A stretch of 64,000 nt of DNA from Candidatus Omnitrophota bacterium (lineage in GTDB: Bacteria; Omnitrophota; Gorgyraeia; Gygaellales; Profunditerraquicolaceae), in the NCBI GenBank assembly GCA_050012075.1, contig JBEKHW010000001.1:132766-196765 (forward strand). Reading direction: 5' to 3'. The position numbers and the translations under genes were made by a program. The notes below the pieces were generated by a model. It did no database searches. It worked only from the letters and a program-made list of their open reading frames with translations, and was not told where the DNA came from. Of the stretch, positions 45,233 through 64,000 are shown in pieces (positions within the stretch are counted from its first letter, which is position 1; each line of letters begins with the position of its first letter).

Positions 45233-45560
45233 TAGAGCGATTATAAAACCGTACTCATCTTTACCTTCCACAAAAGCCTTTGTCCCGTCAATAGGGTCAA
45301 TCACCCAGACGTATTCCGCCTCTCTTTTTGGCTCAATCCCTTCCAATTCCTCCTCTGCTATAATTCCATGCTCGGGGAATTCTTTTCTAATCAACCTGAT
45401 TGCCATCCGCTGAATTTCCTGATCGGCTTCGGTGACTATGCTGTAATCTACTTTTGCTCCCAACGACCTCTCTCCTAAAGACGATTTCTTATAATCACTC
45501 ATTATAATCTTTGCTTTTTGGGCTATTGTTCTGGCGATCTCGGCTGCCGCAGCCACAGAG
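44930..45560 (-). other. Inositol monophosphatase / FBPase (IMPase)-family unit, disrupted by the 45241-45360 shifted block
   Basis: 'SIVTEADQEIQRMAIRLIRKEFPEHG' in frame 1. 'IAEEELEG...EYVWVIDPIDGTKAFVEGKDEYGF' readable only in frame 0 (45241-45360). 'ALMRNGMPILALLYAPEW' again in frame 1. Confidence 0.55.
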
Positions 45561-48500
45561 AACGGCGTCCATTCATCTCCCTCAACCTGCGACACAGTAG
45601 CCGGAGAAGAGGCTTTGTCTTCTCGCTGCACGCTGACTATATTAGGATCTGCCTTGCCGGCCTGGATATCTCCCGGTCCCGATAATACCGCTGCCAATTC
45701 TTCGTTCAACTTTTTCAGTTCTTCCTCTAATTCTGTAAGTCTTTTCTCGATTGTTCCCCATTGTGGCGAGCCCTTCTCCCATTTCAATTGTTCTGCTCTT
45801 TTTTCTATTTCTTCTCTGACATTTCCCCTCACCCTTTCCGTGTAATCGTTAACTTTTTTCACTAAGATAGCTGTTGCCGGATGCTCTCCCAAGAGAATAT
45901 CCGGCCTAAAACCATTCGTATTCAACATCTTCAGTAATGTATCAGGAGAAGATTGTAACCCTCTAATCACCAGTACCTTGGGCGTTGTTTGTAATACTTT
46001 TACTATTTCTGTCCCTGCTTTTCCCTCCATTGCTTCTACTATGCCGGCCCATGGCTCTATTATTCCTTGTCGCGTTAATAATATTATGCTATCCAAATAC
46101 TTTTCATAAGCCGCGGGCGTAGGATTATCAAATATAATCTGGAAGCGCTGGCCTTCTTTAGCTTTTTTCTGCAAATATGCATAGAGTTGCCGCTCGAATT
46201 CTTTGATCGCTGATTTACTAAAATCCACCCTTAAATTTAAGCTCGGAAACTCTATTTTGTCTTCAGATATTATGCTCTGCTCCCAGTCTTCAATTGTAAG
46301 CTTATTCAGTCTTTCATTCTGCAAAGATTCTTCCCTAATAAATTTAGAGAAAGCTGCGGCGTAATTAGGGTCGGTAAACTTTCCGTTGTTAGGGTCTCTA
46401 CCTAAAACACCTCCCTCAAGCAAATCTCGAGGTATATGATAGGGCAATGCGATTTCAGGAAATATGGTAAGGCAGTTACCTTCGGCCTTAGCCTGCTTAA
46501 AGGCCTTTTCTAAGCCGGGCATCACCATCTTTTCAAAAACTATCTTTTCAAAATCATCTTTCCCGGGATGAAAACAATATAGAATAGTAATCGGGGAAGT
46601 CTGTTTAACAGAAGAAGCGGCTCTTTTACCAGGAGCGGCCTGGCGGCGTACCGGTACCGCTGCGTCTCCAAGTGAATCAATACCTAAAATTGCTAATACT
46701 GTGCCTATGAATTTGACCAAAAATCCCCTTCGTGAGGAAACAACTAAAGCGTGGGAGTAGATCGTTTCAGCGAATATAGTATTAAAATCATCGCTATTAC
46801 GAGAATAGGCACTAAATTCGTGGATAAAGGATATGGTAAGTTCTTTACTCTCATAGAGGTACTTTTCATTTAGGAATAATCCTTTGGCAGGGACAAGAGA
46901 ACTAAATACTTTATCAGAAGGACCAGCCCTGGTGTGGCCTGTGCGCTTAAGATATTTTATGAAAGCGGCAAGCTGAACAGGGAATTTGCTGCGTAAAATA
47001 TTCGTGGCTGCCGGATCAAGGTTTTTTTCGATTGAGCTAAAATCAATTACTTGTTGCACATCCCACTCCCTACTTATCCTGGCCTGCTCTACGGCAGCTT
47101 CGGCTTCCGAGACGCCGGGTAAGCGGCGGGCGGCATCAAAGAAAGTATTTTTTATGTCCCGATAAATCAGAGGTATCAGTATAATGGCAATAGAGATTAG
47201 CGGTGCAATAGTAAAAAGCAAGCCGATTATATACGCAGGTATATGACCAATAATACCAGCAACATTATGCCAATTTCCATCATTCTGGCAAAACGATATA
47301 AGAGCCCCACATCCTATCTTAAATAACATAAGGAGAGAAATACATCTAACAATTACACCGGGAGCTGTTTTCTTGTATTTACTGCAGCTTAGGATTAAGT
47401 AGAGTGGCAGAGAGCAAACCAGCAGCAAGAGATCCCCGGCAAGATTGAACAATACCGTCGCAACAGAAGGCCCAAGGAATCGTCCGAGCGCATTTAAGGA
47501 ACCCCACTTATCAATATTATACACAGAGGCGGGTAGATCATCGAGATCAAATGAGATAGCGCCACTGTTTCCTTGCCACAGAAGATGATGCATCGCCTTC
47601 TGTGCGAATGCAGGTGAAAATCTGAGTAAAGAAACTACTAACGCTATAGTTAAAACTATTATTAGGAGCGGAACTAGTATGTCTTTTGCTATGTCTTCCA
47701 TTAATCCTTTTTGCGCGAGGGTGGCGCGGGGCTTTCCAGACCGGGCGGTAAGGAAATCGGACGCTTCACCATAGTCCTGTATCCTTTTGGAGAATAGGCG
47801 TGTTTTCAAACTCTTTAAGGCATTCATTAAGGGCGAGGTGAGGAGGACTGGCAAACAAATAATTTGGATGGATCTTAGGGCTAAATAATAAAATAAATCT
47901 AATCTAACCTTTGCGTCTTTGACGGCCTGGAAGTAGAGCCGTAATTCCTTAGGGTGGATGAGATAATATAGGCAACTTATCAAGCAGGCAAGAAGGTGCG
48001 AGCCGGTAGCAAATTCGTTTCGCTCATGGCGGATGAGGTCATTGATAAAAATTTGGAAAGCCATGGAAGCAGGATTGCTGAGATTAAAAGGCGGAGCCCT
48101 GGCTGCTAAGGCCTTGAGAATAGCAATTTTCCCTGGGCGAGTCTTCAAATCGGCAATACTGCCGGTAACGGTCTCATCTACAAAAACAATCTTCTTTAAT
48201 ATTTTGTGGATAATGTATTTCTTAAAATTGCTGAGTTGGTCCTTATTAGCTGATACAATCTCGCCGTAAAGAGTGCCGGGGTAGGCATGCTTCTTCGTGT
48301 CCGCTGCGGCGAGAATAGGTTCCCCACCAGCCACGAAGAGGTAAACTTCTTCCATAAAATTCCGCAGCGGACGAATAATCGAAAGCGTTTTCACTTTGGC
48401 TAAAATAAAATTGAAAAGGGCTGCGGCAGAAGCCAGAACCCCACCAGCCACGGAAGAGGTGATCCAGCTTAAATCCTGCCGCAACCCGATAAAAGATTGT

Positions 48501-51500
48501 TTTATAATGTAGCTATCATAGGCATTGCTGCCCTTCCCCATTGCTGCGGGGCTGGAACCCTTCAAGACAGAACCAGGCCTTTTCTTAAATGTATCCGCCC
48601 GCGAAGAGAATATTCTATTCCAACTGTCAGGTATAGTTAGATGTTCACCTACGGAAATAATCTTGGCGGGCGCAGAACGAGTAGAATATGCCTTAAAATT
48701 ATTAAACAGTGTTTCTTGGACTTCTTCAAAGGAAGCAAACCGGCTAAAATCTATACTATTGGCCCAGGGCGGAAATTGCCACTGACCACTCTCTTTATAA
48801 ACATAGTACATAGCGGATTCTTGATAAAGGGCGGTCTTAAAACGAAATTGCACTTTAATGCCGAGCTTGCCCAGCTCTTTATGATTCAACCAGCCCTGTA
48901 TAAATAAATTTACCGCTTCAAATCCGGGAACCCGACTCTCTTTTCTTATCTTTGTTATTTGAATATTGCTAAACTTTGACTTAAGAGCTGTTTCGAGCTG
49001 CTCAGGGAATGTTGTGAGTGCGCTCGCCCTATCTTCCTGATTCATGCCGTTATCATCAATAATAAAATTAAATCCTAAAATATCATCTAAATATGTAAGC
49101 GGAGCGGCAGTAATAACAGCCCGGTGTTTCATTATCTTTTCTATAACTCTGGATATGCTTAAAGAAGCATTTTTCTTATTAACGCCTTCTATCTGTAGTA
49201 TTATTTTTTCTAACTTTATGATTAAGCTCTTATATTGTTTTATCCTTGAGAATAATTTAATGTTGTCCTTACCGGCTACAATGCTGCCCAATGTTTTGTA
49301 GACCTGGAACACCATGGTTTCCCACATCGTATCCGGCTCCCAGGCCAGTTCTTTGTTATATTCATATCTTTCTGAACTATAAAATATTTCATCAATTTTC
49401 CTTTTTTCTTTTTCGCTTAGTTGCATATTCTTTAAGATTGAGCCCAGGCTATCTAAGATTCCCTTATCAGGTTTACTCTCATACCCAAATAGCAAGGTAA
49501 GTTTCTCAAGGAGCGAAAGCAGCTCCTGCGACGCCTTCCCTCCAAAAGCATAGCAATCTCTCACATCTGAGATGGCCTTATCAAACCATATTTCAAAATC
49601 ACTGAAAGATTCGAAATAATGGGCGATATCGGCAACTTTAGAGGGCACATCCACCTGAAAGCCGGAAATATCCGTTGCGGCCGGGCTGGAACCTTTTGAA
49701 TTGGAGGCTTTTTTGCGCTTGCCCTGGCCTTTCTCACTGATGGTCTTACCGGGAATATTTTTGGCGGTAATAAAATAACTTGGCACAGTTGAGATAAGAT
49801 TAATTAGAAAATGCATCGTAATAGAAGAGACTAAAGAACCTGTTATCCAATAAACGTAAGCAAAGAAAATGCCGCTAACCCATTGAAAGATCATACTACA
49901 TTTGCCATGTGAATCAGAGAATACGTGCGCATTGCTTAATATCGCAAATAGAATACCCGAAGGCATGCCAAAAATATATGTGCCTGTTAGATTCAATAGA
50001 TCGCACCAGAACCAGCATTGTATATTAAAAAGTATCCCCCGGAATAAAACCTCCTCTATGATCGGAGCCCAAAGAGATCCCGCAATAATAAGTTTTACGG
50101 AATCTTTACGCCTGAAACTGTCTTTAAGCTTTTTCCCGGCTAAGTCATATAATATAGCCACTGCCACTAATAAGCCTAATTCTATGGGGGCTTGTACGGT
50201 AAACAAGAAACCCGCACCGAAACAAATATTCGATATTATCGAACCCCAATTTTGATAGAGAATAAACGGCAGGATAAGAGCCGGTATTAAAATATGCCTG
50301 CGTCTGATCTCCAATTCTTCTTTCTTGGTATCTTCTTTCTTAGCGAAATCGGCAATGAATCCTGTGAATTGGCGTAGTAAAAGATACGCTGCGTAGATTA
50401 ACGGTATCCCGATACCTGCGTTAAAGAATCTTAAGCCGATTACGCTGAATTTTGCAGCAATACTGCTTAAACCAGCCATGCCAATATAAATACCGCAATC
50501 TATAGCAGCAATACAGAAGATTGACATGATAGTAGCAGACATCCCTAACATAAACTTTGCCCAAGATCCCGGGGCTGCTTTTTCCAAGATCGTTTTTGTG
50601 AAGGCATTTAATTTATTTACGAGCATTCTTTCTACTTTGAACATAGCCATGCACGCTATTATTGCAATAGCCCAATCTATACCGCTTAGAGAAGGCTTAA
50701 AACAAAAATCAGTCATTGCGGAGGGACTGGAAGCTTTCGATACGGAAGCATCCCTGTTTCCTGTGGGGATCTCCGGAAGGAAGGCCTTTAATTTTGCCTG
50801 TATCCCGGCTAAATCATCTGCGGGGGTAGATTTTTCGCCAAGCGCCAGAATATTGGCGTGATATTCGCTGCGCGCCAATGCTGCCTGCCCTACGGTGTGG
50901 CAAAGGGCGCAGCGCACATTGTTAAATTTATTAGTTGCTATTGATATGCCGATACCGGTTGTGCACATTACGATACCAAACGCGCATTCGCCTGAACTGA
51001 CCAAACAGCTGACTGCCGTAGCGAATTTTGGATAATGGCAGGAATCTATATTGAATGTGCCCTGGTCCAATACAACCCAGCCTGATTTCTCAAGCTCGCT
51101 TTTTACTTTTTCTTTTAAGGCAAATGCGCCATGGTCGCCGCCGATAGCTATTTTTCCTGCTGCGCCCGGCTGCATGATTAATCCAGCTGCCGGCTTCTGC
51201 GCTACTTCTCTTTCAATTTCGCTTACTAAATTCAATCTCTGCGCGTGCCTGCCGCCCTCAAATTCTGCCAGGCGGAATTTGGCAATAAATTCTTTAGTAG
51301 CAGGATTACCTTTTACTATTACAAGGATGTTGGCGCTATTGTGCTGACGGGTTAATGCAACGGTCTCCGCGTTAAAACAGAAAGCAGCGCGTATACCAGC
51401 TTTTTTATTGGCGAACATAGTAATACCTATGGCTGTGCTTTCCGTATCGGCGATAATTATACCCCGCGCGATTTTTTCTTGCGCAATACCATCTGCCATT

Positions 51501-54500
51501 TTATTCACTACCTGCCTGAAATTATCCCGGTTGGCAGATACGCGGACAATTGGCGTAGAACGCTTACTATATTTGATGCTCCACGAGGCAGTCCTTGACT
51601 CGCCCGATTTAAGAATAACTGGGGTGGCTTCATCTATGAGACTGTTATAGAGATTAATCGCATTTGCCGCGGAGGTTGTCGGCTGGATACTGGCAACGCC
51701 CTCCGGGAAGTTAGGGTTACCTAAAGGCACGAAAAGCATTACATTCTTATATATGCTGCTTTGAGTAACATACAGATTCTCTCCGCTAAGCGGGTTAAAG
51801 AAACGGGAAATGATTTTCCTTTTCTTTGGATCAAACCCGGTAATCCCCTGCTCAAATGCACGGGTTAACGGAGTAAGCTCGCTCACATCTGTTGAACCCT
51901 TTTCTACAAACAGCGGCGGCTGGTAACGCGGGACTTGTAGCGCTTCTTTTGTATCGTGCACCTTCCAGTATTTTTTCCCGGGAACCTGCACTTCCCAGCT
52001 GCGGATATCATTCAGATAACCCCACCAATGGTCGCCAAAGCTGCAGATACGCCGTTTTGTATCTTTATTCACTACTTCGGTTATTGGCAGGAATTCATCT
52101 TCTTTGAGCCAGAGGGTGCGAGTAAGGTCAAAATTGCCGAAGTTACTGCTGATTTCCGCGGATTCGCTTGTGGAGTAGAAAAGCTTGATGTAACGCCAGC
52201 CAAACCAGCCTTTTCCTACGCTGATAAAATGCCATTTAACTTTATCCGTCATCCCGTGCAGGGCATTTGGCCCAGTTACAAGATCAGGATTATAACGCAT
52301 GGTTTTCAAACCTTGGCCGGCACTCACATTAATTTTTTGGCCATCAAATTCCGCTATCCCGTTATGTATACGGCTGGTCCAGGGGAACATAAAAGGTATG
52401 CCACCGGGAAGTGGTAACCCGGTTTTTTCATCTACCAAGCGCGTGACTTTACCTTTAGTAGCATCAAAACCCTTGTGCCAGACAATGCGCTTACCGTTCA
52501 ATACCAAATCCACAATAGTGCCGCCTAATTCAGCAACGGAAAAGTAAGAATTCTTACCGCATGATACCGTGCGGATTTTATAACCGTCATCAGAAATATG
52601 TTCCTTGTAATTCTCCTCAGGCGCGACCATTGAGGCCACTTTAACGCGTTCAAAGATAGAAGCGCCCGGCCTTCTGGAGGAAACCCCGAAGGCATTATAT
52701 GTATTTATGCACAATAACGCGGCCCCGCATCCTACGAGAGGAGTCAACCATCCCCACCATGGCAGGAGGTTAAGATACCAATAATTGAGCGGGACGACCC
52801 AACATCTTTTCCACACGCGCTCCCAGGTCTTAATAACCTGCCAAGATAAACTGTAATCCGCGTTTACCACCTCAACATTCTCAAGAGAATTTTCTCTGGC
52901 TGCTTTCCTGGCAAAATAGCCCGGTATAAATATTGAATACAGGGAAATAAGCCCCACGCCTGGTATGTAGATGATCAGCGCGCGAAGCAGATTGTAAAGA
53001 CTCCAAGTTCCTACCTGGGGGACGAAATGGCCGATACCGGCAATCAGGCCCTGCATGGCTACCCCAAGGAATAAACCCGTAACGAAAATGGTAGCTGCGC
53101 GTTTTAAAGATTGGGAGAAGCTATGCCTGGGCCCGTCGGCAATACGCATACCCACAAAATCTCCTGCGACAACCAGGGATGCAAACAACAGGATGTTGCG
53201 TAACAGCACCTGGTCCAATGCAAAAAGGTACAGCAGCGTTTCTCCTATGCCGAATAATGACAGGCCGATAGCGCCTGTGACTAGCGCAGTCAAACAAACT
53301 GCCGAAACTATCAAGCGCCGCGATGAAAGCGCTTTCGTTTCTGGGCCAACAAAATCTACGGCAGGAGAAGAAGCAACCGACCCGCCGAGCACTGCGACAA
53401 GCGACACATCCTTTATAAAATCTATTTCTTTTAATTCATTCTTGCCATAACGCCGGCCTGCTTTTTCTGTATAATAGAGATTTTCTCCTGCCTTATAAAT
53501 GCGTAGATCGGCATTCTTGCAGCGGATGATGATGTCTTCTGCTTTCTTGAGCCGGTATATCTGTAAATCAAGACTGTCGGGGAATTTATTACTTGCCCAG
53601 TCCAAGATCATAAGCGTATCCTGCAGCGGCCTGTATCTTATATGATCTATGACTCTGCCTGCGGCGCCATTTACCTCCAGCAAATTCCTTAAAGTAACTA
53701 TACAAATACCTGCTGCTGCGGCCAGATTCTCCGCGAAGGAATCTTCTTCCGGAGTAAGCCTTACGCTAATCTTAACCTTCTTCACTTTGGAAGGATCAAG
53801 AGAGAGTTCTGCCATAATCTGCTGAAGTAGGGCCCTGAGCGGATCAGGTATTACCTGTTTTTTATTTTCCTCTTCCGGAAAATAAAATCCTACGCGGGCA
53901 TTCTTTTTGTTGCGTAAATCCCAAAGAGTTAAAAGGGTTGTTTTTAAGCTGGGATGAAAGATCTCTTTACCTTGAATTACTGCCGGAGCAATCTGTAGAT
54001 AAATCTTCTGGGCTACATTTTTGCCTATGATTTTTACTGCGCGCGGGATTTTAAGGGTGAATACGCCGATCCCGGAAAAGGTCTCGATATCTCTGGGCCT
54101 TATATTATTAAACATTGCCCGGGCGGCTTTAAACTCCTGCTGCCGGATAAGCTCCTTATAGAGACAGTTGGCGCGGATTATTGTCTGCCTTGCCGGACTT
54201 ATCTTCAATAAACCAAGTAATAACCTTTGTAATTTTGTTTTTTCCTTGCCCCGCGCCTTTATTTCTTTGGCCAGATAAAAGATGGTCATAATAGAGCCTA
54301 TCCTGTCCTGGAAAAGCGCAAAAAGCCCGGTCTGTTTTATGATATAGCAGGCAAAGTCAATCTCCTTCTTACTCGCTGCGACTAACCGCTTCAATAAGGC
54401 CTGCTGCGCGCCCTCAGCTATCTCCTGGTTGAATTCTCCTCTTAGTTTTTCCTGGAATGACCGGGATATGACCTCTACAATGCCTAATGCGTGCTGATGC

Positions 54501-57500
54501 TTCGCCTGGTATTTCTTAAACACCTTACCTATATTAAGTATGTATTCACCTAACAAAGGCACAAGCTCGTCCAAAGGAGTAAGGGATGTCCTGACTATTT
54601 CTTCGGTATCCAGGTCCCTTAACGCAAGGCGTCCTTTTTCATTCCAGGTCTTAAGATATGTTCCGGAGACTTCATATCCTTGCCTTGCGTCTATGTTCTC
54701 AAATATAATTCTCGTGGTGTAGATATCCCGTACCGTCAATGACTGGTTTGACTTACGCGTGGCCAGATGGGTAAGGGTGAGCTGGAAACCACTCATTGCA
54801 TCAATGTCTTTGAATATTATCTCTTTGGTTTTTACCGCTCTTAAGGTAAGATGGCCGCCTGCTTTACGCGTAGCCAGATGCGTAAGCGTCCACGCATAAT
54901 CCCATGTAGCGTCTATGCCGCAAGCTGCTTCCCCGTCCTGAAATACAGGGTTTTCTGCAGGGTCAAATAGCCATACGCGCTTGGATACGCCTTTGACAAG
55001 CTGATAGCCGGCTTCATTTCTCTCAATCTGCCTGACTTTTTCTTTGATTATATTTTCAAACTTCGCGATTAACGCCTCATCTGTAATTACAATCGCGGCA
55101 GGAGAAGAGCCGGCTTGCTTCGTTTTCTCAACACTAGGACGCCTATTCTGATCTTTAAAGGAAGCGGTTAAAATTGCGCCTAATAATAATACATAAAGCG
55201 CCATCCCTGTGGGCACTGCCCAAGATAGATAAGAACCGGCAGGAGGGCTTTCGTTCAACTTATCTTCTACCGCGATTTTGTACGCCTTAACGTCAAATAT
55301 CTTCTTATTGAAATTAACGTACATCGGCTCAAGCTCCGAAACCTGCTCCCAGGTATTGCCTCCTAAAATCCTATTTATCTCTTTATTGTCTCCGGTTAAA
55401 TACAGATATTCTAAAACCTTAAACCCTCTTATACGGGCTGCATCAATATCCTTTAATCCTGACCTTTCACCGATTTTTTCTGCAAGATAAATGACGGCTT
55501 CCTGCTGGCATGGATAGCAGGAGATATCCACAGAACTTAAGACCGAAGATAAATCACCATTTACAATCAGCGCTCTTTCAATCAGGGTGGTCATCCCCTC
55601 ATCCAGTATCTCGTTTTGGAACCCTGCGGCATTAATATGCAGGGCCTCGTGTAGATGAGTCCTCTTAATCCGTTCTGCAGAATCTTTTATCAATAACGGA
55701 TAAATGAATTCTTTACGGCTGACCCCGGGATAACTTCTGCCAGTGAGATTCTCTTCCGGCTTATCAATAAATACCGGCTGCGGCTTCTTGTATCTCAAAC
55801 CGAAAGATTCAATATATTTCCTGGCTATTTCATCGCCTTCCCTGACTATGTTATCTTCTAAAACAGAGGCAGGCCTTGAATTATTCCGAGCATAAACTGC
55901 GATATCAACTTTTTGCAGATTATAGAGCAGAAGAAATGCCGCGCCTATCTCAATCGCCAAGAGGGCAACGAGCAGCAAGGCGTTGGAAATTGGGCTGTCT
56001 TTTTTACCAGTTTTTGTCCGCGCAGCATCTGAGGGCACCGTTGCTGGGCTGCTAACTATTCCTGCTTGGTTTAACAGGCCAGGCTCCGCCCTATGGACTG
56101 CAGGCGCCTGGATTTCAACAAAGGTTTCTCCGGAATATGTGTAATTCGCCAGGAATCCTGTGATAGGTGGAGAGTTTTCAAGTATTTCCAGCCATTCAAT
56201 GAGCTGCCCCTGTAAAGCTCCTGACTCCGGCCCTATATAGGTAGACATATTGGTATCTTCATATATTGAGCCCACGTGAGCGGTTATGACAATAATGAGC
56301 GAATTGGATTCTTTCTTGAAGGCGGTTTCAACCGGTATTGCCGGGGTTGAGGAAGTTTTTGTGCAGACATTACAGCCTAAATCCTGCTGTTGACTATTTA
56401 CAAACGGCCCAACAGTAGCGGGCGAAGAACCGCCCCGCTCTGCTATCAGCCGCACAGCTTCGATTGCCGCGGGTGTAGCAATCTGTGTCCCCGGTAACGT
56501 TACGGTTGCTGCGCCAAATAAGCTCGCCTGATGCAGCGCCTCTTCTTCGCTTCCGCCTTTAGCTAACTTAAGCACAAACCCTGCGTTTGCGGAATCACCG
56601 GCTCCAACAGGGCTTACCACTCTAACCTTGATAGCCGGTTCTTTTATAACCCTACCATCCCGCAATACCAGTATCATTCCTTCTATATCCTGCTTTACCA
56701 GGACACCGCGTAAATTATATTTCTTTATGAGCTCGCGGGAATATTCCTCTATCTCATCCGCGTTTAATTTCTCTCTGGATAAAACACCTCCACTGGCAAA
56801 CCCCATTTGTTCCAATATCGTGATAAATTCTTCTTTATTAGGAGCGATTATATCAGAGGGCTCTTTTCTTTCTACTTGCGCCAACACTGCTTCTGTTTCT
56901 GCTTTGGTAGTGGACCCCCTCTGGAAGTCCAGAAGCGCCTGGATATTATGCCTATGAGCGATCTCTACGATAGATTTATAAATACGCGGCGTTTCGTCCG
57001 ATGCAATCTGCCCTCCTACGGTTGTCACCAGCCACTTACAATTGGGAGCGCCGGACAGCATCCTGTCAACTTCGTTTAATAAATTATCTGCGACCTCCGA
57101 GGAAATCACGCCTCCTAAACTAGTCATTCCGGCAATAAGCTCACCGCCTATAATATGGTTAATAAGTATCTTGTGCGCGGTTTGTGTGGGCACAAAAGAA
57201 GCTATGATATGCTCATTCGCTAATTTCCGGCAGCGCATATCAGCAATCTCGTCTCTTCCCTTAAATCCCACAAAAGCAATATATTCATTCTGATTTGACA
57301 CTGCCTTGGCTGTATTTGCCGCTCCCCCGCCTGCATCAAACTGAACATCAACCAATTCTAATGTGCCGTCGCCCTTATCCTTCCAAACAAAGGCAATATC
57401 CGCTGCTCCGCATATATTGACTCCCATAACCATCGTTTTATTTAATAAACCTTCTCCGGAGAACTCCGGTTCTCTAGTGTCGGGTGATTGCTCTTTCCTT

Positions 57501-57541
57501 AACTTGATAAACCTAATTGGCGCATCCGTTAACCTTGCCAT
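45332..57541 (-). CDS. Giant multidomain protein, fragment 2, in the same frame as fragment 1. Contains PfkB kinase-like, TM plus HExxH, multi-TM, mutarotase-like, tandem RpiB-like and CPBP protease-like units, more membrane blocks, and the N-terminal part of the IMPase-like unit. The start is unresolved. The first in-frame ATG is at 57539-57541, but a GSSPA junction motif (57662-57676) lies in-frame between the TAG and that ATG, so the frame probably does not really restart. Ends at TGA 45332-45334, which sits inside a +1-shifted block.
   Basis: Frame = 1 mod 3 verified at 57478, 57598, 56620, 56431, 56053, 55111, 53374, 52420, 51160, 50734, 50086, 49693, 48559, 47698 and 45613. Confidence 0.5.
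47100..47700 (-). other. Multi-TM membrane block
   Basis: 'EDIAKDILVPLLIIVLTIALVVSLLRF' (47641-47698, verified) plus further hydrophobic helices downstream. Confidence 0.35.
49750..50700 (-). other. CPBP-family (CAAX protease-like) intramembrane protease-like unit with extra TM helices
   Basis: 'IAGSLWAPIIEEVLFRG' EExxxR motif (50037-50086, verified), 'FAILSNAH', 'SITMHFLINL' HxxxN. Flanked by ASSPS (50720-50734) and GSSPA (49679-49693). Confidence 0.5.
50830..51700 (-). other. Tandem ribose-5-phosphate isomerase B (RpiB/LacAB)-like units
   Basis: 'KIAIGGDHGAFALKEKVKSELEKSGWVVLDQGTF...CTTGIGISIATNKFNNVRCALCHTV' (51121-51160, verified), preceded by a second partial RpiB-like copy. Confidence 0.6.
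51850..52700 (-). other. Aldose-1-epimerase / YeaD-type mutarotase-like unit
   Basis: 'GLPLPGGIPFMFPWTSRIHN' (52361-52420, verified) resembles the YeaD 'RGGIPICWPWFG' motif. Confidence 0.4.
52950..53350 (-). other. Multi-pass transmembrane block (about 4-6 helices)
   Basis: Consecutive hydrophobic ~20-aa segments in the frame translation, e.g. 'LIVSAVCLTALVTGAIGLSLFGI' and 'ATIFVTGLFLGVAMQGLIAGIG'. Preceded by ASSPA at 53360-53374. Confidence 0.4.
54720..54900 (-). repeat. Short tandem repeat (~90 nt x2) encoding 'TLTHLATRK...LTLR' peptide repeats
   Basis: 'cgcgtggccagatgggtaagggtgag' and 'cgcgtagccagatgcgtaagcgtcca' repeat on the + strand. Confidence 0.4.
55150..55990 (-). other. Membrane-anchored HExxH zinc-metallopeptidase-like unit
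   Basis: TM helix 'ISNALLLVALLAIEIGAAFLLLY' (55925-55990, verified). 'THLHEALHIN' HExxH (55630-55660, verified). Second hydrophobic helix 'SYLSWAVPTGMALYVLLLGAILTA' near 55150-55230. Confidence 0.4.
56440..57540 (-). other. PfkB-family sugar kinase-like unit (1-phosphofructokinase / tagatose-6-P kinase type)
   Basis: 'NKTMVMGVNICGA...GGGAANTAKAV' N-terminal glycine-rich motif and 'VVSPVGAGDSANAGFV' (56581-56620, verified). Followed by GGSSPATV at 56417-56431. Confidence 0.55.
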
Positions 57542-57697
57542 AATTCCATTTCTCTTGCTTACTTCCAGGCCCCTTACTGCCTTTGTTGCTATCTTTAAGG
57601 ACTCCGCGGTTATCGCTCCCTGCAAATATTCAGCCAGTTCTTTTTTAACAGTATCAACAATCTGCTGGAGAGCTTCCTGCCCGGGCACTGCTGCCGG

Positions 57698-60600
57698 GCT
57701 AGAAGCTTTCTTGCCGGCTTCTGCTAAAATATGGGCCGGGTTCATCGTAGCGATATCGGCCCCGGATGCAAGCAGCCGGTCAAGCAGGTTCTCGTTATCG
57801 GTAAATCCGATGATACGGATATCGTTACCCAGGATATCACGCACCTCTTGGGCTATGTAATGGCTGTCATCTACCAAAGCGCTCTGCTTGAGAGGAATAT
57901 TGTGTTTATTAAGCAAATCACCGATAGCGATGATCTTTTCCCTGCTAGAGGTGCCCCTTCTTTTCTCGTGAAATTCCCCAAAGAGAGGAATATTCTCCCA
58001 GATGGGCTGCGTCCTTTCCGGAATGTTGGATGTAGCCAGGAAGACTTTGATACCCCTCTGTTTTAAATCCAGGATCAATTCTTTAATGCCGGGGGTAAGC
58101 AGGCTCTCCGAATCAGTATCTAAAATCTTTTGCGTCCGCTGCCATCTTTCTTTTTCAAAAATATTCAGATATTCCGCGGGAGAAAGGAATTGCCTTGTGG
58201 ATTGGGATGCCTTGGCCTGCCTTATCAGATCACCTATCGCCCCTATTTCCGGTAGCCCCCGCGTATACTCATCATAATAAGCCCTGCCAGCCCTCAGATT
58301 TTGCTCTGTCCTCTCTAACTTCAGGATTTCAAGATATATCGTATCTACAAAGCAGTCCCGCGTCAGCCCTATATTAATGACAGTGCCGTCCATATCAAAA
58401 ACCACTGCCTTGAGATTACGGACCCATTCCGGAACAGCAAATGGAGCGGCCGGAGAAGAAGCACATTCTTCTTTGATTTGCTTCCATAATTCGTCTGCTT
58501 GCGCCTGGGTATGGCTGAAACCTAACTGCTCATTTAGGCATAACCTTGCAATGCTTATCTTACCCAGGCCTTTAATATCTATATACTTCGTTAAAATATC
58601 TCTATTAGTTTGGCCATCTTCAACTTTAAATGTTTCTCTCAGTATTTCTGTGATGAATTTTTCTTTCCCCTGTTCAGAGATAAGAGGCTTTCCCTTGAGA
58701 TTCTGAAATGCAGCTGCTCTTGTTTTAAAGGACAATTTTTCGGAAGAAATACCCTCGAACTGTTCTGCCCTATCACTCCCCTCCAAGGGTATCGTCATAC
58801 CGACATGTGCAGGTACAATCGTAGCAGGCAGGTTGCCATCGACTAACCTGTTGACTAATGCTTGTTTTGCTTCTTCTGGGGCGTGGACCAAGACAAGGTT
58901 CTTGGGATTTATCTTGCCGATAACGTACGCCAGGCCTCTTTGGTCGGCATGAGCCCTAAAGAGGAATTTCCTGACCTCGGCGTTTACCTGTATAATCGCT
59001 TCGCCTTCACCAGACGGAATAGCTATTTTCTTTCCCTTCTGAAGATTGAGGATCTGTGCCGCAGGGCTTTCTTCCGTGGCATAACCTACGAAAAAGATGG
59101 CATTAGCAGGATTACCGGCCATCTGCGTAAGATACAACAGGGAACAGCCTCCCACAAACATTCCTGAACCGGCAATTATAATATGCGGCTCTTTTAGTTC
59201 AAGAATCGACTTTCTTCTGTCGCGGCCTACCGCAATAATATTACTGCCATCCTCGAATAAATATTCTGAGCCACGTACACGGTATCTTTTGTAAAGCCCG
59301 GCCGTCCTTATCGCAAGGCCGTCAATATAGATATTGGCCTGAGGAATAATACCCTTTCGTTGATATTCCTGTAAAATAAGGGCTATCTCCGTTGACCTTC
59401 CTATCGCAAAAGCAGGGACCAGGATAGAGCCACCCCTGCGCAAAACCTCTGCTACCGAAGCGGCAAATTCTTCTTTTACGGATTGACGCGGCGGCAGATT
59501 TGCTTCTTTGCCATAAAGCGCCTCCATGATCAATAAGTCGATTTCTGCCGTAGATAGCCGCATAGAATCCACCGAATTCTGTTTTTTCACGGAAATATCC
59601 CCGGAATAAAAAATGTTACCGTAAGGAGTGGCTATGATTACCGAGGCTGCGCCAAGGATATGCCCGGCAGGAATAAAGAGCACCTTGATGTCTTCCGAAA
59701 GCCTGTACCATCTTCCAAAATCAACGTATCTAAAACGCTTTGAAATATCCGCAAACTCTTTTCTATTAAACTCATTAGTGAGTAAAATCCTGGCTAAGCC
59801 AAAAGTAGGAGCTGTAGCAAGTATCTTGGCATCCGGCAACTGCCTTGCTGCCTCTATCAGTGAGCCGGAATGGTCAAAATGGGCATGGGTAATGATTATA
59901 TGGCCTATCCGGCCTTCTACATTGCTTAGGTCAAGGGGCTCCAGGGTTTTGGGGTCTGCTCCGATATCTAAAAGCAACTTTTCGCCGGCAATATCTGCGA
60001 GAAATGCGCTCTTACCCGGCTCATCCACTCCGCCTAAAGGCGTTATCTTTATTTTATCTCTCTTCAAAGGAGATTCATCTTCAAGCAGCGCCCGGCACAA
60101 GCCATCATAAGATTCCTGCACGCTCCTATCATTCTCAAAGAAAGATTTTCCGGCCACAAACACATTGGCCCCTGCCTTGGCTGCCTTTCTTATGGTGAAA
60201 CGGTTAATGCCACCGTCTATTACAATATCTCCGTCAAAATGATACTCATTCCTTAATATCCCGATATTCCTTACCGCTATGCCTTGCTGGTCAAACTTCT
60301 GGCCGCCCCTGCCCGGATAAACGCTCATCTGCAATACTCTATCGATGTACTTACGGTTTTCCATGATGAACCTGCAAATAGCATGGATATCGGCTTCGGG
60401 GGATGGGTTTAGAGCAAGTGCGGCAATCCCGTCGTAGGCCTTAATCAACTTAAGGCAATCCAATAAGCGCCCTTTATCTTCAAACCCCTCCCGGTGCAGA
60501 GTAATCATCTTGGTTCTGAATAAGATATAGTCCCGCACCAGGCGCTCAAAGCTGCGGGAGATCGCCCGGCTATCTGCCATTACCATCAGGTGCGCATCAA

Positions 60601-63600
60601 ACATTGTGCCGGTATCAGCCTGCCGAATAATCCTCCATACCCCCCTCGGAGTCAATTCCTTTAAAGTATCTTGCGCATTTGCCTGGACTATGGCGCTGCC
60701 TACGCCATTATTGCTGTCTATTACATCTATGTGAATGATAACCGGAATGGGGCCTTTCTTTCCTATCTTTATTGCCTGAAGCGCTTTCTGGCGCCTATCT
60801 GCCTTTGGAACACTGAGCACCGACGGCTCAATGATAAATCTCTGGGCTGTCGGAGAACTTGCCTTGTAAAGAGCCGGAGCCGGTTGTCTTGGATATAATG
60901 AACCGGCCGCTACGGTGGACTTATTTAACTTTTCCAGCTGCGCCTGTGCAGCCGCGTAGTCCAATACATTGCCGCCTAAATTTAGTAGAAGATCGCGAAG
61001 GCGATTAGTATAAAAATGTATCCCAAGCGCGCCCAAAAGATTATTGACTTCTTCATGTATCAGGCCACCTGTAACAGCAATGAATTCATGTTTAATAATA
61101 TCTTCACTGCTCATCTTCTTTAATTTAGGAGAAAGCTTCATTGTCACAGAAGATAGATGTTTGCCCTGATGTTTTATGGAGGCTTCCATAAGCAATTCGT
61201 GAACCGCTATTAAAACAGGGTGGCCCTTTGCTTCTTCAGGAAGCGAGGCGGCGTTTCTCATTCTTTTTTGGATTTGATCTATTATCAAACCTTCATGTAC
61301 TATTATTGCTCTTCCCTGTGGATGGTTATACAAACCTTGCAGGCAAAGCGGCAATCTTTCAACGCCGCCTATCTCCTGAAGCATCTCTCCCGTTATCACG
61401 CAAGCACCGCAGTCAAATTTCTCACTTTTTGTTGTATATACCTGAACTCCTTTGGCGATCTCCGGTTTACTTATACCGTGCGTGATTCTCGCAATATCCT
61501 CTTCTAACTGCTTACGAAAATCCTCTACTATATCCAGGCCTTTTGTTAAAGATTCGACGGCATTACCATTAATTAAATCTTTTACCAAGTCCTTTACCTC
61601 TTCTCTATCTTTCCCATCTGCAGCGAAATCTAAGCCATCCTGCCCGGATTTACTTTCCAGATTATTACCGGCCGCTGCGGCAAACTTTGCCCCCACCAGC
61701 CACGGAGAGGATAGCAAAGTCTCTAAAATACGCCACAGCGGCCGGATTATTGAAAGCGCTTTCACTTTAAGCCGTAAAAATATGCTTACTGAATTATCAC
61801 AAGATAAAACGGGTGAAGCAGGTGAAGACCCGGCATAACCCGCAGCGCGGCCATTCATCGCAAACTCGGTAAGAACCGGGGCATCTTGCGCAAGATAGTC
61901 ATAAGAAGGCACGGGAGCTTTAGTCACAACATACTTTTCAATATTCAGGATAAAATCCCTCCATTCAGAACTGGCTTTTATAATCTCTCTTAAGAAGCCT
62001 TGCCAGGAGCTTCTTAAGCCATATTCCTTGGGGGTCACGTGTAGATGGCTCCAATACCGGCCTTGCTGGTCGTGTTCTCCGCCTACCATAGGACTCATCT
62101 GCCCCTTATGGAGGAGCCATTCCCGTAAATCAATCATCACCGGAACCCCAAAATAGGCTGCCAAGATTAACAGTTCAATAAATCCTTTGACCGGGCCTCC
62201 CAACGTTGCCAATGACCTCTCGTCATAGTTGGAAGGATAGATGAGCAGTTCCGGCATCCTGATAATGGCATATTTTAATGACTCAACTAAATATCTTCCG
62301 GCATCATTATTACCTTCAACCATTCTCCTGTAGTCGCCGTAAACATTAGGATAATAAACCTTTACTTCGACCCCGGCCTCTTTTGCCAGCCGCAGCAATT
62401 CTTTTCTGTCTGCCTCTTCATACGCCTCCATGATAAATTTAAATTTCTTGCCTTTTACGGAAGCAAATATCATGGACCAGGGCTCTGGCTGCTTTGCCAG
62501 ATAATCTGGGGAGAAATATGTGCCTAAGTTCCGTTTTAAAAGAAGGTGCGGCAGGTCAGCACGCGCTCCTATCGCACCTGAATTAATATGCTCCTGGATA
62601 GAAGTAATATAATATTCCATTACTTCCGTGTTAAAAGGATTGAGGAATACCTGGTCAACATTGGGGACCCCGGCGAATCCTACTAAATGTTTGACGTATA
62701 CCGGCCTGGGCTGCTGGCCATCCGCAACCCTTATCACGCAAGAGCCGCCGTTTTTACTGACTAAATCATCAACAAACCGCTGCTGCATGATTGCAGCAGC
62801 GCGCCTTCGGTACATCTCACCCTGTCTGGCATCTAATTCGGTATACATGGTCCAGCGATAATTTTTCTCCGTAATGGCGTCAGGGGATAACCACGGGATG
62901 AAATCAACAATAACGCCCATTCCTAATTCCGCGGCACGTCCGGTAAATGCCCGCAATGCCTGCCTAGGTTCATCTCCGTTACACAATTGAGGATCGATCT
63001 CCCGCATGCTATATATCGAAAAACTATTACCGTGACAGTCGGTTAATGTAATATCTCCTATCGTAGCTTTCTTGGTCAGATAATTGTTTACGGAGATGGT
63101 AGGGTAGTTCGGTTTTTCTCCGGTGAGGATATACTGCGCTGCGGCAGGAACCCGATGCAGCGATTTTGATATTAGTCCCTTCTTGTACAGATTATAAATA
63201 TAAACTTCTCCTACGCCGCTATCTGCCAATATAGGCAAAATCTCTTCGGCTTTATTGAAACTGTTTTCATAAATAACTGCCCCGCTCTTTGGATCGACCA
63301 CTGACCCGATATCAGCTAAGTTCATAGCAACCGTCAATTCCTTGATTTGATGGCCGTTGCTTAACGCCTGATCTTTTAAAGGAGATGATCCTACCTGGCT
63401 ATTTTGATGGGCTGCGGCAGAAAGAGAGCCCCCACCAGCCACGGAGAGGTAATCCTTTTCTACATTAATGTTTTTATTTCTATCTCTCTGCACAAAGCCA
63501 TTCTCCGAACTTGCCTTTACTGTCGTCGGCGAAGAGCCGTTTGAGTTATTTCCCTGGAAGACCGTGTTTCTAAGCACCTCCCATGTTAAACCTCCCTTAA

Positions 63601-64000
63601 TATTTATTTTAATATTCCTGTACTCACCCCACCCTTTGTAGATACGCAAATAACCGTTATGGATATGCAAGGGAATTATAAAAAGGAGTTCCTTTTTCAT
63701 TCTTTCATCTTTAAATACAGAAGATAATTCTTCGAATTCTTTGATACAACCTTCGCTGTCTAGCATCCAAGACTTATTGGCTGCGGCAACTGCTTCGTAA
63801 GGATCGTTATGCAGGAAATAGTTGCCTGATCCAAACTCTTTTTTAAATTTATCAACCATAAAACTATTCTGCTCGTGGTAATTAGTCAGCCAAAGGTGGG
63901 ACATTTCCTCTAACAACTGGAGCAGGAATTCTTTTGACGACTCTGCTTTTATTAAAACAGCTTTATCTTCCAAATAGGCTATAGCTCCTACAGTTCCTTT
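57698..64000 (-). CDS. Giant multidomain protein, fragment 1. Its 5' end lies beyond the window. Contains GH13-like, ribulose-phosphate-3-epimerase-like, beta-CASP MBL RNase-like and HAD-like units. Ends at an in-frame TAG (57698-57700), possibly an artefact.
   Basis: Minus frame (codon starts = 1 mod 3) translated by hand at 63841-64000, 62701-62820, 60713-60753, 59858-59905 and 58377-58470. All are open and protein-like. TAG lies at 57698-57700. Confidence 0.6.
57720..58440 (-). other. HAD-superfamily hydrolase-like unit
   Basis: 'KAVVFDMDGTVINIG' DxDGT motif I (58377-58410, verified), 'KVFLATSNIP', 'IIAIGDLLN'. Preceded by ASSPA at 58448-58462. Confidence 0.5.
58800..60080 (-). other. Beta-CASP metallo-beta-lactamase ribonuclease-like unit (RNase J / CPSF73-like)
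   Basis: 'IIITHAHFDHSGSL' HxHxDH motif (59858-59905, verified), downstream 'FYSGDIS', 'ILVPAFAIGRSTEI', 'RAHADQRGL' (58931-58957). Confidence 0.6.
60150..60770 (-). other. Ribulose-phosphate 3-epimerase-like unit
   Basis: Motifs 'GPIPVIIHIDVIDS' (60713-60753, verified), 'MFDAHLMV', 'LQMSVYPGRGGQKF' and 'DGGINRFTIRKAAKAGANVFVAGKSFF' (60194-60217), in RPE order. Confidence 0.6.
61832..63376 (-). other. Possible GH13-like (alpha-amylase superfamily) TIM-barrel unit (low confidence)
   Basis: Translation contains 'ELGMGVIVDFIPWLSPDA' (62881-62930), resembling GH13 region I, and 'GGSCVIRVADG' (62701-62760), resembling region II. The unit is flanked by GSSPL (63377-63391) and GSSPA (61817-61831). 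Confidence 0.3.

Follow-up and report, generated by a model that had tools for sequence, protein, structure and literature searches.

Sugar-phosphate enzyme modules and a recurrent module-border motif in a giant open reading frame of a Candidatus Omnitrophota bacterium

Introduction

A stretch of 64,000 bases from a Candidatus Omnitrophota bacterium (assembly GCA_050012075.1, contig JBEKHW010000001.1, positions 132,766 to 196,765), referred to below as the window, raises a simple question: why are enzymes of sugar-phosphate metabolism strung together in a single reading frame, and what lies between them? A reading made from the letters alone (the sequence-only reading) had recognised, within about 10 kb of that frame, units resembling RPE, a HAD phosphatase, a PfkB sugar kinase, a YeaD-type mutarotase and two RpiB isomerases, with an IMPase/FBPase-like unit nearby, and had taken them for a pentose-phosphate or ketohexose-phosphate set with intact catalytic residues.

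Giant open reading frames (ORFs) are common in Omnitrophota (Seymour et al. 2023, PMC10066038), and genes coding for up to 85,804 amino acids (aa) have been described (West-Roberts et al. 2023, bioRxiv 10.1101/2023.11.21.568195). Few features of bacterial genomes are as poorly understood as giant genes, of 30-150 thousand aa (kAA), and published work has left open whether their products are cut or stay a single chain. In the present case the region is, with high probability, an internal stretch of one giant minus-strand gene of more than 64 kb, of the 'multi-enzyme metabolic' type of Omnitrophota, built as a chain of modules with delimiters.

One open reading frame across the window

Residues were numbered from the first codon of the frame, at window positions 63998-64000, residue i falling at window 64000-3i+1..64000-3(i-1); the region of the sequence-only reading (window 50830-60770) corresponds to aa 1077-4391. 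The frame itself takes up the entire window:

1..64000, minus strand: continuous ORF of at least 21,333 codons, open at both window ends, with 0 stops, coding composition and Pfam domains throughout

Among these 21,333 codons there is no TAA, TAG or TGA, against about 1,302 stops expected from the base composition (log10 P of a stop-free frame about -584 under the base-composition model), and the other five frames contain 599-1,562 stops each. As one frame stays free of stops across 64,000 bases, the whole window lies inside one ORF. Its composition by codon position is typical of coding DNA, with G at 0.33 in position 1. An ORF listing of the 40-64 kb part had given just short plus-strand ORFs, the giant ORF being missing from it because it is open past both window ends. 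No Rfam family and no tRNA was found in the window.

More than 20 distinct Pfam families at E <= 1e-5 follow one another along the ORF, the sole repeated family being RpiB (twice), and the Pfam matches were identical whether the chain was scanned as split pieces or as unsplit 5,000-aa chunks. Hydropathy gave 37 Kyte-Doolittle peaks of at least 1.6, with about 30 plausible helices scattered over the chain and two inside the MBL fold described below, the method being a crude one and not a topology predictor.

As a whole, the sugar-enzyme stretch of about 10 kb makes up about 15% of this stop-free ORF of more than 64 kb. The RPE, HAD, PfkB, epimerase-like and RpiB units were all recovered there on the minus strand with Pfam, NCBIfam and PDB, and the proposal that normally separate enzymes are fused in one frame is borne out (0 stops, domains in series). 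They do not form a self-contained cluster: between the sugar units of the giant ORF lie unrelated modules, namely a beta-CASP RNase, a module with two transmembrane (TM) segments around an HExxH motif, a 579-aa module, a multi-TM domain and a CPBP protease.

A delimiter between modules

The commonest four-residue word of the whole protein is SSPA, with 32 occurrences against 0.31 expected; in 300 shuffles of the residues, no 4-mer exceeded 10 copies and SSPA itself reached 4 at most. The preceding residue is G at 19 sites, A at eight, S at three and V at two, with K or R frequent at position -2. Together with nine more sites of the form [GA]SSP[TLSM] there are 41 sites, spaced at a median of 368 aa. 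Those in and around the sugar-enzyme region are the following:

60848..60862, minus strand (aa 1047-1051): variant A-SSPT, 6 aa before the RPE domain
58448..58462, minus strand (aa 1847-1851): A-SSPA, between the beta-CASP module and HAD
57692..57706, minus strand (aa 2099-2103): A-SSPA, between HAD and PfkB
56417..56431, minus strand (aa 2524-2528): G-SSPA, 14 aa past the end of PfkB
56042..56056, minus strand (aa 2649-2653): V-SSPA, 24 aa before a TM helix
55097..55111, minus strand (aa 2964-2968): G-SSPA
53360..53374, minus strand (aa 3543-3547): A-SSPA, 20 aa before the multi-TM domain
50720..50734, minus strand (aa 4423-4427): variant A-SSPS, directly after RpiB unit 2
49679..49693, minus strand (aa 4770-4774): G-SSPA, 35 aa past the CPBP domain
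45599..45613, minus strand (aa 6130-6134): A-SSPA, 18 aa before the IMPase-family unit
44684..44698, minus strand (aa 6435-6439): S-SSPA, 23 aa past the IMPase-family unit

In the unsplit scan, none of the 41 sites falls inside a Pfam domain, and the distance from a domain end to its nearest site is 6-45 aa; HATPase_c, for instance, ends 7 aa upstream of an ASSPL. The flanks of the sites are richer than random positions in G, S, P, A, T, K, Q, E, N and D (0.675 vs. 0.571) and poorer in hydrophobic residues (0.261 vs. 0.354), each by about six standard deviations, and a TM helix follows within 45 aa at seven of the 41 sites, the expected number being 2.7. Both serine codon families are used within SSPA and all third positions vary, which argues for selection at the peptide level. 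The motif [K/R]-[G/A]-S-S-P-A is a protein-level signal at the borders of modules, that is, a module delimiter. Concerning former start codons, no trace was seen: Met is not in excess within 8, 12 or 20 aa after the delimiters.

The codons also carry a regional pattern. The first Ser of SSPA is encoded by TCN at 14 of the 17 sites before aa 12,000 and by AGY at 14 of the 15 sites after aa 12,780 (Fisher p = 2e-5). Since a switch between the two serine codon families requires two substitutions, this split suggests that the linkers are not convergent but were inherited as copies of a few ancestral linkers, with two linker lineages in one gene, and that modules may have been added together with, or into, an existing linker. 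A DNA repeat or recombination site as the sole origin of SSPA was ruled out by the varying Ser codon families and third positions, the regional codon bias notwithstanding.

Enzyme units with intact catalytic motifs

Five units of the chain fall under this heading, the last of them at some distance from the others:

60137..60832, minus strand (aa 1057-1288): RPE-like unit, PF00834 at E 1e-20 over profile positions 2-198 of 198
58838..60007, minus strand (aa 1332-1721): MBL/beta-CASP/RMMBL nuclease (PF00753, PF10996, PF07521)
57863..58411, minus strand (aa 1864-2046, in a module of aa 1848-2099): HAD phosphatase-like unit, PF00702 at E 4e-11, 44.3 bits vs. a cut-off of 26.4
56429..57703, minus strand (aa 2100-2524): PfkB module, its kinase fold at aa 2209-2511 (56468-57376), PF00294 at E 4e-27
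44762..45556, minus strand (aa 6149-6413): IMPase-family unit, PF00459 at E 3e-39, 135.7 bits vs. a cut-off of 27

The RPE-like unit matches PDB entries 3inp (E 6e-14) and 2fli (E 5e-13) and contains HIDVID (aa 1090-1095), DAHLMV, MSVYPGRGGQKF and IDGGIN, whereby the metal-binding and catalytic residues H1090-x-D1092, H1137 (in DAHLMV) and D1262 (in IDGGIN) are kept. Against the NCBIfam rpe equivalog model TIGR01163 it scores 79.6 bits, below the cut-off of 212.6. The beta-CASP nuclease is joined directly to its end. This second unit keeps HAHFDH (aa 1372-1377), and its NCBIfam matches, aCPSF1 (E 5e-65) and Cas14 (E 2e-50), both remain below cut-off. An RNA nuclease amid sugar enzymes was unexpected.

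As for the HAD unit, motifs I, II and IV are present as DMDGT (aa 1869-1873, D1869-x-D1871-G-T), TSN and DD, respectively. The PfkB module, which reaches 95.8 bits in Pfam vs. a cut-off of 25.8, has DAGGGAANTA (the GG motif), PNKEE (NxxE) and GAGD (aa 2466-2469). Its PDB match is weak (E 1e-6), and its nearest NCBIfam family is 1-phosphofructokinase/hexose kinase (E 2e-31), with 109.2 bits for TIGR03828 vs. the 292 of the cut-off. It further carries a conserved N-terminal extension of about 100 aa, which is shared with P0001, a protein 48% identical to it.

The IMPase/FBPase-like unit that had been placed at 44.9-45.6 kb is found there, in a module delimited exactly at aa 6131 and 6436. It matches PDB 2p3n (E 1e-22) and shows EE (aa 6216-6217), WVIDPIDGT (DPIDGT at aa 6235-6240) and WD (aa 6368-6369). 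Its nearest NCBIfam model is HisN (119.5 bits vs. 275), and it falls below the cut-off of every equivalog model (SuhB, HisN, CysQ, FBPase/IMPase).

All four motifs on which the claim of intact catalytic residues had been based (HIDVID, DxDGT, GAGD and DPIDGT) were thus located. The RPE, HAD, PfkB and IMPase units, the beta-CASP nuclease and the CPBP protease retain their catalytic motifs, which we take to be the catalytic signatures of their families. The claim holds for RPE, HAD, PfkB and IMPase; it fails for the epimerase-like unit, where Gln replaces Glu, and for the RpiB units, each of which is incomplete.

An asymmetric RpiB tandem

The LacAB_rpiB family of Pfam matches two stretches (E 1e-54), as had been noticed before, each of them incomplete and the two forming complementary halves:

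51191..51562, minus strand (aa 4147-4270): RpiB unit 1, keeping QHNSAN and EGGRHAQR, without GxDHxG and the catalytic Cys
50726..51160, minus strand (aa 4281-4425): RpiB unit 2, PF02502 over profile positions 1-111 of 138, PDB 3ph3/3he8 at E 4e-37

In unit 1, ADTESTAIG stands at the position of the Cys loop. Unit 2 keeps GGDHG (D4289, H4290) and MCTTGIG (C4346), has a degenerate HN (SEYHAN) and is without GGRH. Aligned with PDB 3ph3, unit 2 covers RpiB residues 1-111 (E 1e-26) and unit 1 residues 75-147 (E 1e-10). The RpiB models of NCBIfam are exceeded here, with 166.9 bits vs. a cut-off of 138.65 for TIGR01120 and 169.5 vs. 88.3 for TIGR00689, the scores being sums over the two stretches.

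Neither unit holds the full set of Asp-His, Cys-x-Thr, His-Asn and Arg-His-x-x-Arg; both together hold one complete set. In RpiB dimers, as in the structures from E. coli and M. tuberculosis, the Asp-His/Cys-Thr half-site comes from one subunit and the His-Asn/Arg-His-x-x-Arg half-site from the other. The pair is a conserved asymmetric tandem that, as far as its residues can predict, would retain a single composite active site (DH and Cys from unit 2, HN and RHxxR from unit 1). The same asymmetry occurs in P0010, P0014, P0018 (standalone, 325 aa) and P0002, while P0012 is a full double. Complementary losses kept across five independent proteins argue for an evolved architecture with one composite site, and not for decay.

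Tandem RpiB proteins form a family of their own, with full doubles such as P0012 and, mostly, asymmetric single-site forms, including standalone proteins of about 320 aa; this pseudo-heterodimer lineage appears to be independent of the giant genes.

The tandem shares with the RpiB homodimer and the LacA/LacB heteromer (PF02502) an active site placed across the interface of two subunits. It differs in that the subunits are fused, each being without the half-site that the other keeps, with one site per pair; the putative assignment of residues to subunits follows the E. coli and M. tuberculosis RpiB structures.

An aldose-epimerase fold with a substituted catalytic residue

51563..52609, minus strand (aa 3798-4146): aldose-1-epimerase-fold unit, recognised by PF01263 and by a profile against PDB

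The Aldose_epim family (PF01263) matches aa 3820-4025 at a borderline level (E 2e-6; 27.9/24.9 bits vs. a cut-off of 27), and phmmer of the unit alone against PDB returned only noise. A profile of eight homologues, run against PDB, found the aldose 1-epimerase 4bzf at E 2e-27 over 312 positions. The mutarotase fold proposed for this unit is therefore upheld; the affinity to YeaD is not, as YeaD (2hta) reached only E 0.006 and the yeast hexose-6-phosphate mutarotase 2ciq E 7e-6, the best matches being epimerases of the YoxA type.

Two His (His3915 and His3991) and a conserved Asp are retained and are invariant in the alignment. Gln4106, in IQP, aligns with the catalytic Glu of 4bzf ('PEP'). That Glu is reportedly the general base in galactose mutarotase, according to work on L. 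lactis GalM. Judged by this alignment, the unit has lost the catalytic Glu. Within the clade of five to which the window belongs, four members have IQP and one has MQP, and three more distant relatives have IEP. That the Gln is common to the clade argues that the position is under selection; more probably, this Gln-bearing fold binds a sugar rather than catalyses its conversion.

Relatives and their delimiters

Relatives were sought by an exhaustive HMMER search with aa 3571-4770, and by genome and metagenome scans with an alignment of the epimerase-like module. Each sub-module of aa 3571-4770 has relatives of its own, either standalone or embedded elsewhere in proteins of 4.7-6.5 kAA, which are mostly fragments limited by their contigs. 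Loci with the epimerase-like module were found in five Candidatus Omnitrophota/Omnitrophica metagenome-assembled genomes (MAGs; best identities 53, 50 and 46%) and in large metagenome contigs, and at nearly all of them the match lies inside an ORF that is open across the entire locus of 13-21 kb.

For the HAD and PfkB modules, the genome scan and the metagenome scan, made with a two-sequence alignment, returned no match, and a word-indexed protein search gave P0001 (48%) as the single relative. P0001, of 846 aa and from ENA contig ERZ1426844, is the only close relative of the PfkB module; it is a gene of normal size with a signal-anchor, it has 'DSPA'/'ASPA' at its own domain borders, and a response-regulator gene lies downstream.

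Several modules recur side by side: in P0004 the epimerase-like module comes directly after HAD, in P0002 it follows the RpiB tandem, and in P0009 it is joined to a GHMP kinase. This recurrent co-occurrence argues that the units work together.

Related giant ORFs carry lineage-specific versions of the delimiter. These are SSSPx in L001/P0003 (21 SSP vs. 1.3 expected), SSP[VLA] in L002 (17 vs. 1.4, encoded nearly throughout by AGY-TCG-CCG), VSSP[LIV] in L006/P0079 (10 vs. 0.9), SSPA in P0014 (5 vs. 0.04), LRGTSP in L008 (three to four times), [ST]LDNGG, with its double glycine, in the 4,704-aa P0013 (9 vs. 0.06) and RSELR in L012 (7 vs. 0.16, its synonymous codons being varied). In L001, L002 and L006 the local motif stands on either side of the homologous epimerase-like module, with 350 aa between the two sites in L002 and 341 aa in L006; in L008 the motif precedes the module, and in L012 it lies 11 aa past the end of the Pfam domain. 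Locus L012 (2180-15007) contains a complete ORF of 4,276 aa with Peptidase_M23 and a canonical aldose epimerase. A scan of its flanks for a protease gene yielded only SUKH-4, DUF3095 and a periplasmic binding protein.

Comparison with known giant proteins and other systems

The enzyme fusion fits the published class 1 of Nielsen & Lui (2026, bioRxiv 10.64898/2026.06.07.730766), the 'multi-enzyme metabolic cluster', with its content of sugar metabolism, kinase, HAD and HATPase domains and a TM helix every few hundred residues or so. The shared traits are an ORF of tens of kAA, many Pfam families with none dominant, sugar, kinase, HAD and HATPase_c domains, spaced TM helices and divergent relatives. 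On the other hand, the present ORF is seen as an internal piece of 21 kAA, and the set highlighted in that paper (starch synthase, GT1, PGM/PMM, ROK) differs from the RPE, RpiB tandem, PfkB, IMPase and epimerase-like units found here. The type of fusion is already known; the delimiter may be the new feature. The published accounts of giant proteins (bioRxiv 10.64898/2026.06.07.730766, 10.1101/2023.11.21.568195, PMC10066038) are without a motif between modules, and a literature search for Omnitroph* together with polyprotein returned nothing relevant; a description elsewhere is possible in both cases.

The Archaeovorins (type Velamenicoccus archaeovorus LiM, 39,678 aa) offer a second comparison. 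They too are giant membrane-associated Omnitrophota ORFs for which cleavage has been proposed, with glycolytic-type domains, TPI, PGI, FBPase, PGM and aldolase being occasional central-carbon members (bioRxiv 10.1101/2023.11.21.568195). Their defining domains (glycosyl transferases/hydrolases, methyltransferases, NUDIX, SecA-DEAD and C39/S8 peptidases) were not found in the visible 21,333 aa, and their published role, extracellular degradation of prey cell walls, is a poor fit for enzymes that depend on ATP and sugar phosphates.

The eukaryotic proteins AROM, CAD and fatty-acid synthase likewise fuse consecutive related enzymes in one uncut polypeptide. These are soluble, with 3-7 domains of one pathway and no repeated delimiter, whereas the present chain has dozens of unrelated modules, TM blocks and DNA/RNA-binding domains. 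Viral polyproteins and the multi-core precursors of ribosomally synthesised and post-translationally modified peptides, such as the cyanobactin precursor PatE, resemble it in that their units are parted by a short repeated recognition sequence that is read by a dedicated protease; here the host is cellular, the scale is 100-fold above that of the peptide precursors and the delimiter is known from sequence alone.

Possible roles of the delimiter and of the sugar units

The polypeptide strings together protein-sized modules, some of them soluble enzymes and others transmembrane blocks, with a delimiter between most of them. The sugar-phosphate modules would face the cytoplasm, a side assumed because they need ATP and phosphorylated sugars. 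They could form a membrane-tethered node, in which the RpiB tandem and RPE would interconvert ribose 5-phosphate, ribulose 5-phosphate and xylulose 5-phosphate, the PfkB unit would act as a ketohexose-phosphate kinase and the IMPase-family and HAD units as sugar-phosphate phosphatases, the node being fed by whatever the remainder of the giant protein captures.

A strict four-residue motif with lineage-specific versions implies a specific reader, and the delimiters may be processing sites. The reader that we prefer, tentatively, is a processing protease that would cut the chain into protein-sized products; docking or a hinge function ranks next, followed by other modifications. The gene would then be a stop-codon-free operon, translated once into a bacterial polyprotein and cut by a dedicated protease at [G/A]SSPA or its lineage equivalents, a reading that we put forward as possible, at less than an even chance. 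The five-residue motif is strict, occurs only between domains at the spacing of ordinary proteins and is under selection at the peptide level; it differs by lineage, as expected of a site co-evolving with its protease; LDNGG ends in a double glycine, like the substrates of C39 peptidases; standalone homologues of modules start within about 10 aa of the delimiter position (for instance P0006 vs. the site at aa 3544); and proteases are embedded in the ORF itself (CPBP and possibly the HExxH module, with no link to the motif). Against it, Met is not enriched after the motif, so that the modules bear no trace of former start codons, and no C39/S8 domain was found in the window. We know of no protease with a matching [G/A]SSPA specificity. 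Extended to giant Omnitrophota-type ORFs at large, the proposal that they are polyproteins, with lineage-specific delimiters read by a co-evolving protease and mapping the cleavage points, is a still more guarded one.

The chain could also stay uncut as a tethered metabolon, SSP being a hinge or docking site (for a parvulin-type prolyl isomerase, a chaperone, a kinase or a glycosyltransferase) that aids the folding or insertion of successive modules. We regard this as rather unlikely, though a serious competitor: the flanks have a linker-like composition, the invariant Ser-Pro bond would be a natural target for a prolyl isomerase or kinase, sites shortly upstream of TM helices are in excess, and a conserved Rotamase_2 peptidyl-prolyl isomerase gene lies near giant genes (bioRxiv 10.1101/2023.11.21.568195). 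A passive hinge, however, has no need of four invariant residues, and RSELR and LDNGG are without Pro, so the prolyl-isomerase account is not general. Concerning the units themselves, a galactose/tagatose-6-phosphate set (a LacA-LacB-like isomerase with a LacC-like kinase) in place of a pentose-phosphate set is improbable. The asymmetric two-unit isomerase does resemble the LacA/LacB heteromer, LacA models match unit 1 (as does PDB LacA 4lfk_A) and LacB models unit 2, and the PfkB kinases include LacC; but TIGR01120 scores 166.9 bits, above its cut-off, vs. 79-120 for LacB and 35-63 for LacA, far below theirs, the kinase scores 109 bits as 1-phosphofructokinase vs. 38 as LacC, and Pfam scans of the window found no tagatose-bisphosphate aldolase. 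The higher RpiB and 1-phosphofructokinase scores make tagatose-6-phosphate less likely than pentose or ketohexose phosphates. More improbable still are units decayed to non-catalytic scaffolds, for which one may cite the Gln at the catalytic Glu of the epimerase, the loss of Asp-His and Cys in RpiB unit 1 and of GGRH in unit 2, and the wide divergence of all units from the equivalog models. The six units named above keep their catalytic signatures, the two RpiB units complement each other exactly in what they have lost, a pattern conserved in five independent proteins, and the epimerase Gln is conserved in its clade; a loss of catalytic residues in most units, which would have told for decay, was not seen in the motif alignments. 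Finally, an artefact, be it a mis-assembly or separate genes masked by a reassigned stop codon, is hardly credible: nothing but the extreme length of the ORF speaks for it, the domains are consecutive over 64 kb of a single frame, ORFs of this kind also occur in independent MAGs and metagenome contigs of other studies, and published long-read complete genomes contain ORFs of up to 147 kAA (bioRxiv 10.64898/2026.06.07.730766). Stop-codon reassignment was ruled out, all three stops being absent from the frame.

Several points weigh against the overall explanation. All enzyme units apart from the RpiB pair score far below the NCBIfam equivalog cut-offs, their putative activities and substrates rest on sequence comparison, and no specific substrate can be assigned to them at such scores. 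The enzyme families of the proposed pentose-/ketohexose-phosphate set are present, but Pfam scans of the window found no transketolase, transaldolase or aldolase, and the set is not a pathway alone. Hydropathy by itself cannot fix the side of the membrane on which the modules lie, the cytoplasmic location being an assumption, and no close orthologue was found. As for cleavage, two domain pairs (RPE/beta-CASP and epimerase/RpiB) have no delimiter between them, and some relatives (L003/P0004, L010 and P0010) are without an obvious one.

West-Roberts et al. proposed cleavage by C39/S8 domains, with 'no information about cleavage points' (bioRxiv 10.1101/2023.11.21.568195). If the polyprotein reading is true, the delimiters would be the long-missing map of such points in giant proteins. 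In any case, the delimiter grammar splits the chain into units whose properties can be predicted separately, and it gives an exact prediction at the peptide level, with termini at [G/A]SSPA. The enzyme fusion adds a further example to the multi-enzyme class, with a pentose/ketohexose-phosphate flavour, together with an RpiB pseudo-heterodimer that would have one active site.

Other modules and minor observations

The remaining modules of the region, between PfkB and the end of the CPBP stretch, are as follows:

55109..56053, minus strand (aa 2650-2964): TM-HExxH-TM module, with a TM segment, about 235 aa containing HEALH (aa 2784-2788) and a second TM segment
53372..55108, minus strand (aa 2965-3543): module of an unrecognised family, 579 aa, no Pfam or NCBIfam match
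52631..53329, minus strand (aa ~3558-3790): multi-TM domain by hydropathy, with the standalone counterpart P0006
49793..50098, minus strand (aa 4635-4736): CPBP/Rce1-like intramembrane glutamic protease, PF02517 at E 1e-11, with EEVLFRG and HFLIN

The TM-HExxH-TM module has hydropathy peaks at aa 2674 and 2928; searches gave no Pfam or NCBIfam match and no homologue, and its single-sequence AlphaFold2 model (pLDDT 36, pTM 0.24) was unusable. HExxH, searched as a regular expression, occurs twice in the whole ORF, the second time at aa 9055 (about window 36821-36835), a count near chance for 21 kAA. The HEALH module may be an extracytoplasmic metalloprotease, as a weak candidate. The multi-TM domain is matched over query positions 5-216 by P0006 (256 aa, 43% identity, standalone) and P0005. 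The CPBP domain sits in a multi-TM stretch (window 49691-50690) with EExxxR and HxxxN intact, and its NCBIfam match is a MrtJ-type CPBP (E 2e-5); a standalone protein, P0011, is related to it, and the unrelated giant fragment P0013 has a similar module.

Further along the ORF follow formyltransferase, HATPase_c, TPR, GlnD, RNA polymerase alpha-CTD, sigma-70 region 4, HTH and SNF2 helicase domains. The formyltransferase (N- and C-terminal domains) and HATPase_c share one inter-SSPA module of 1,764 aa (window 35756-41047), which is split by ASSPL variants at aa 7970 and 8388. Nucleic-acid modules are grouped at window 2870-14740: RNA polymerase alpha-CTD and sigma-70 region 4 (aa 16,421-16,745), an HTH_31/HTH_3 module and a full SNF2/Helicase_C ATPase (E 1e-43).

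The only sizeable repeat of the window at the DNA level is a tandem array at 22426-23281 (aa ~13,600-13,880), with about 6-8 copies of a 108-nt (36-aa) unit that are 78-86% identical and encode AGDIAVEAVKNNLPGISxxDVxGWIKECxxxxxx.

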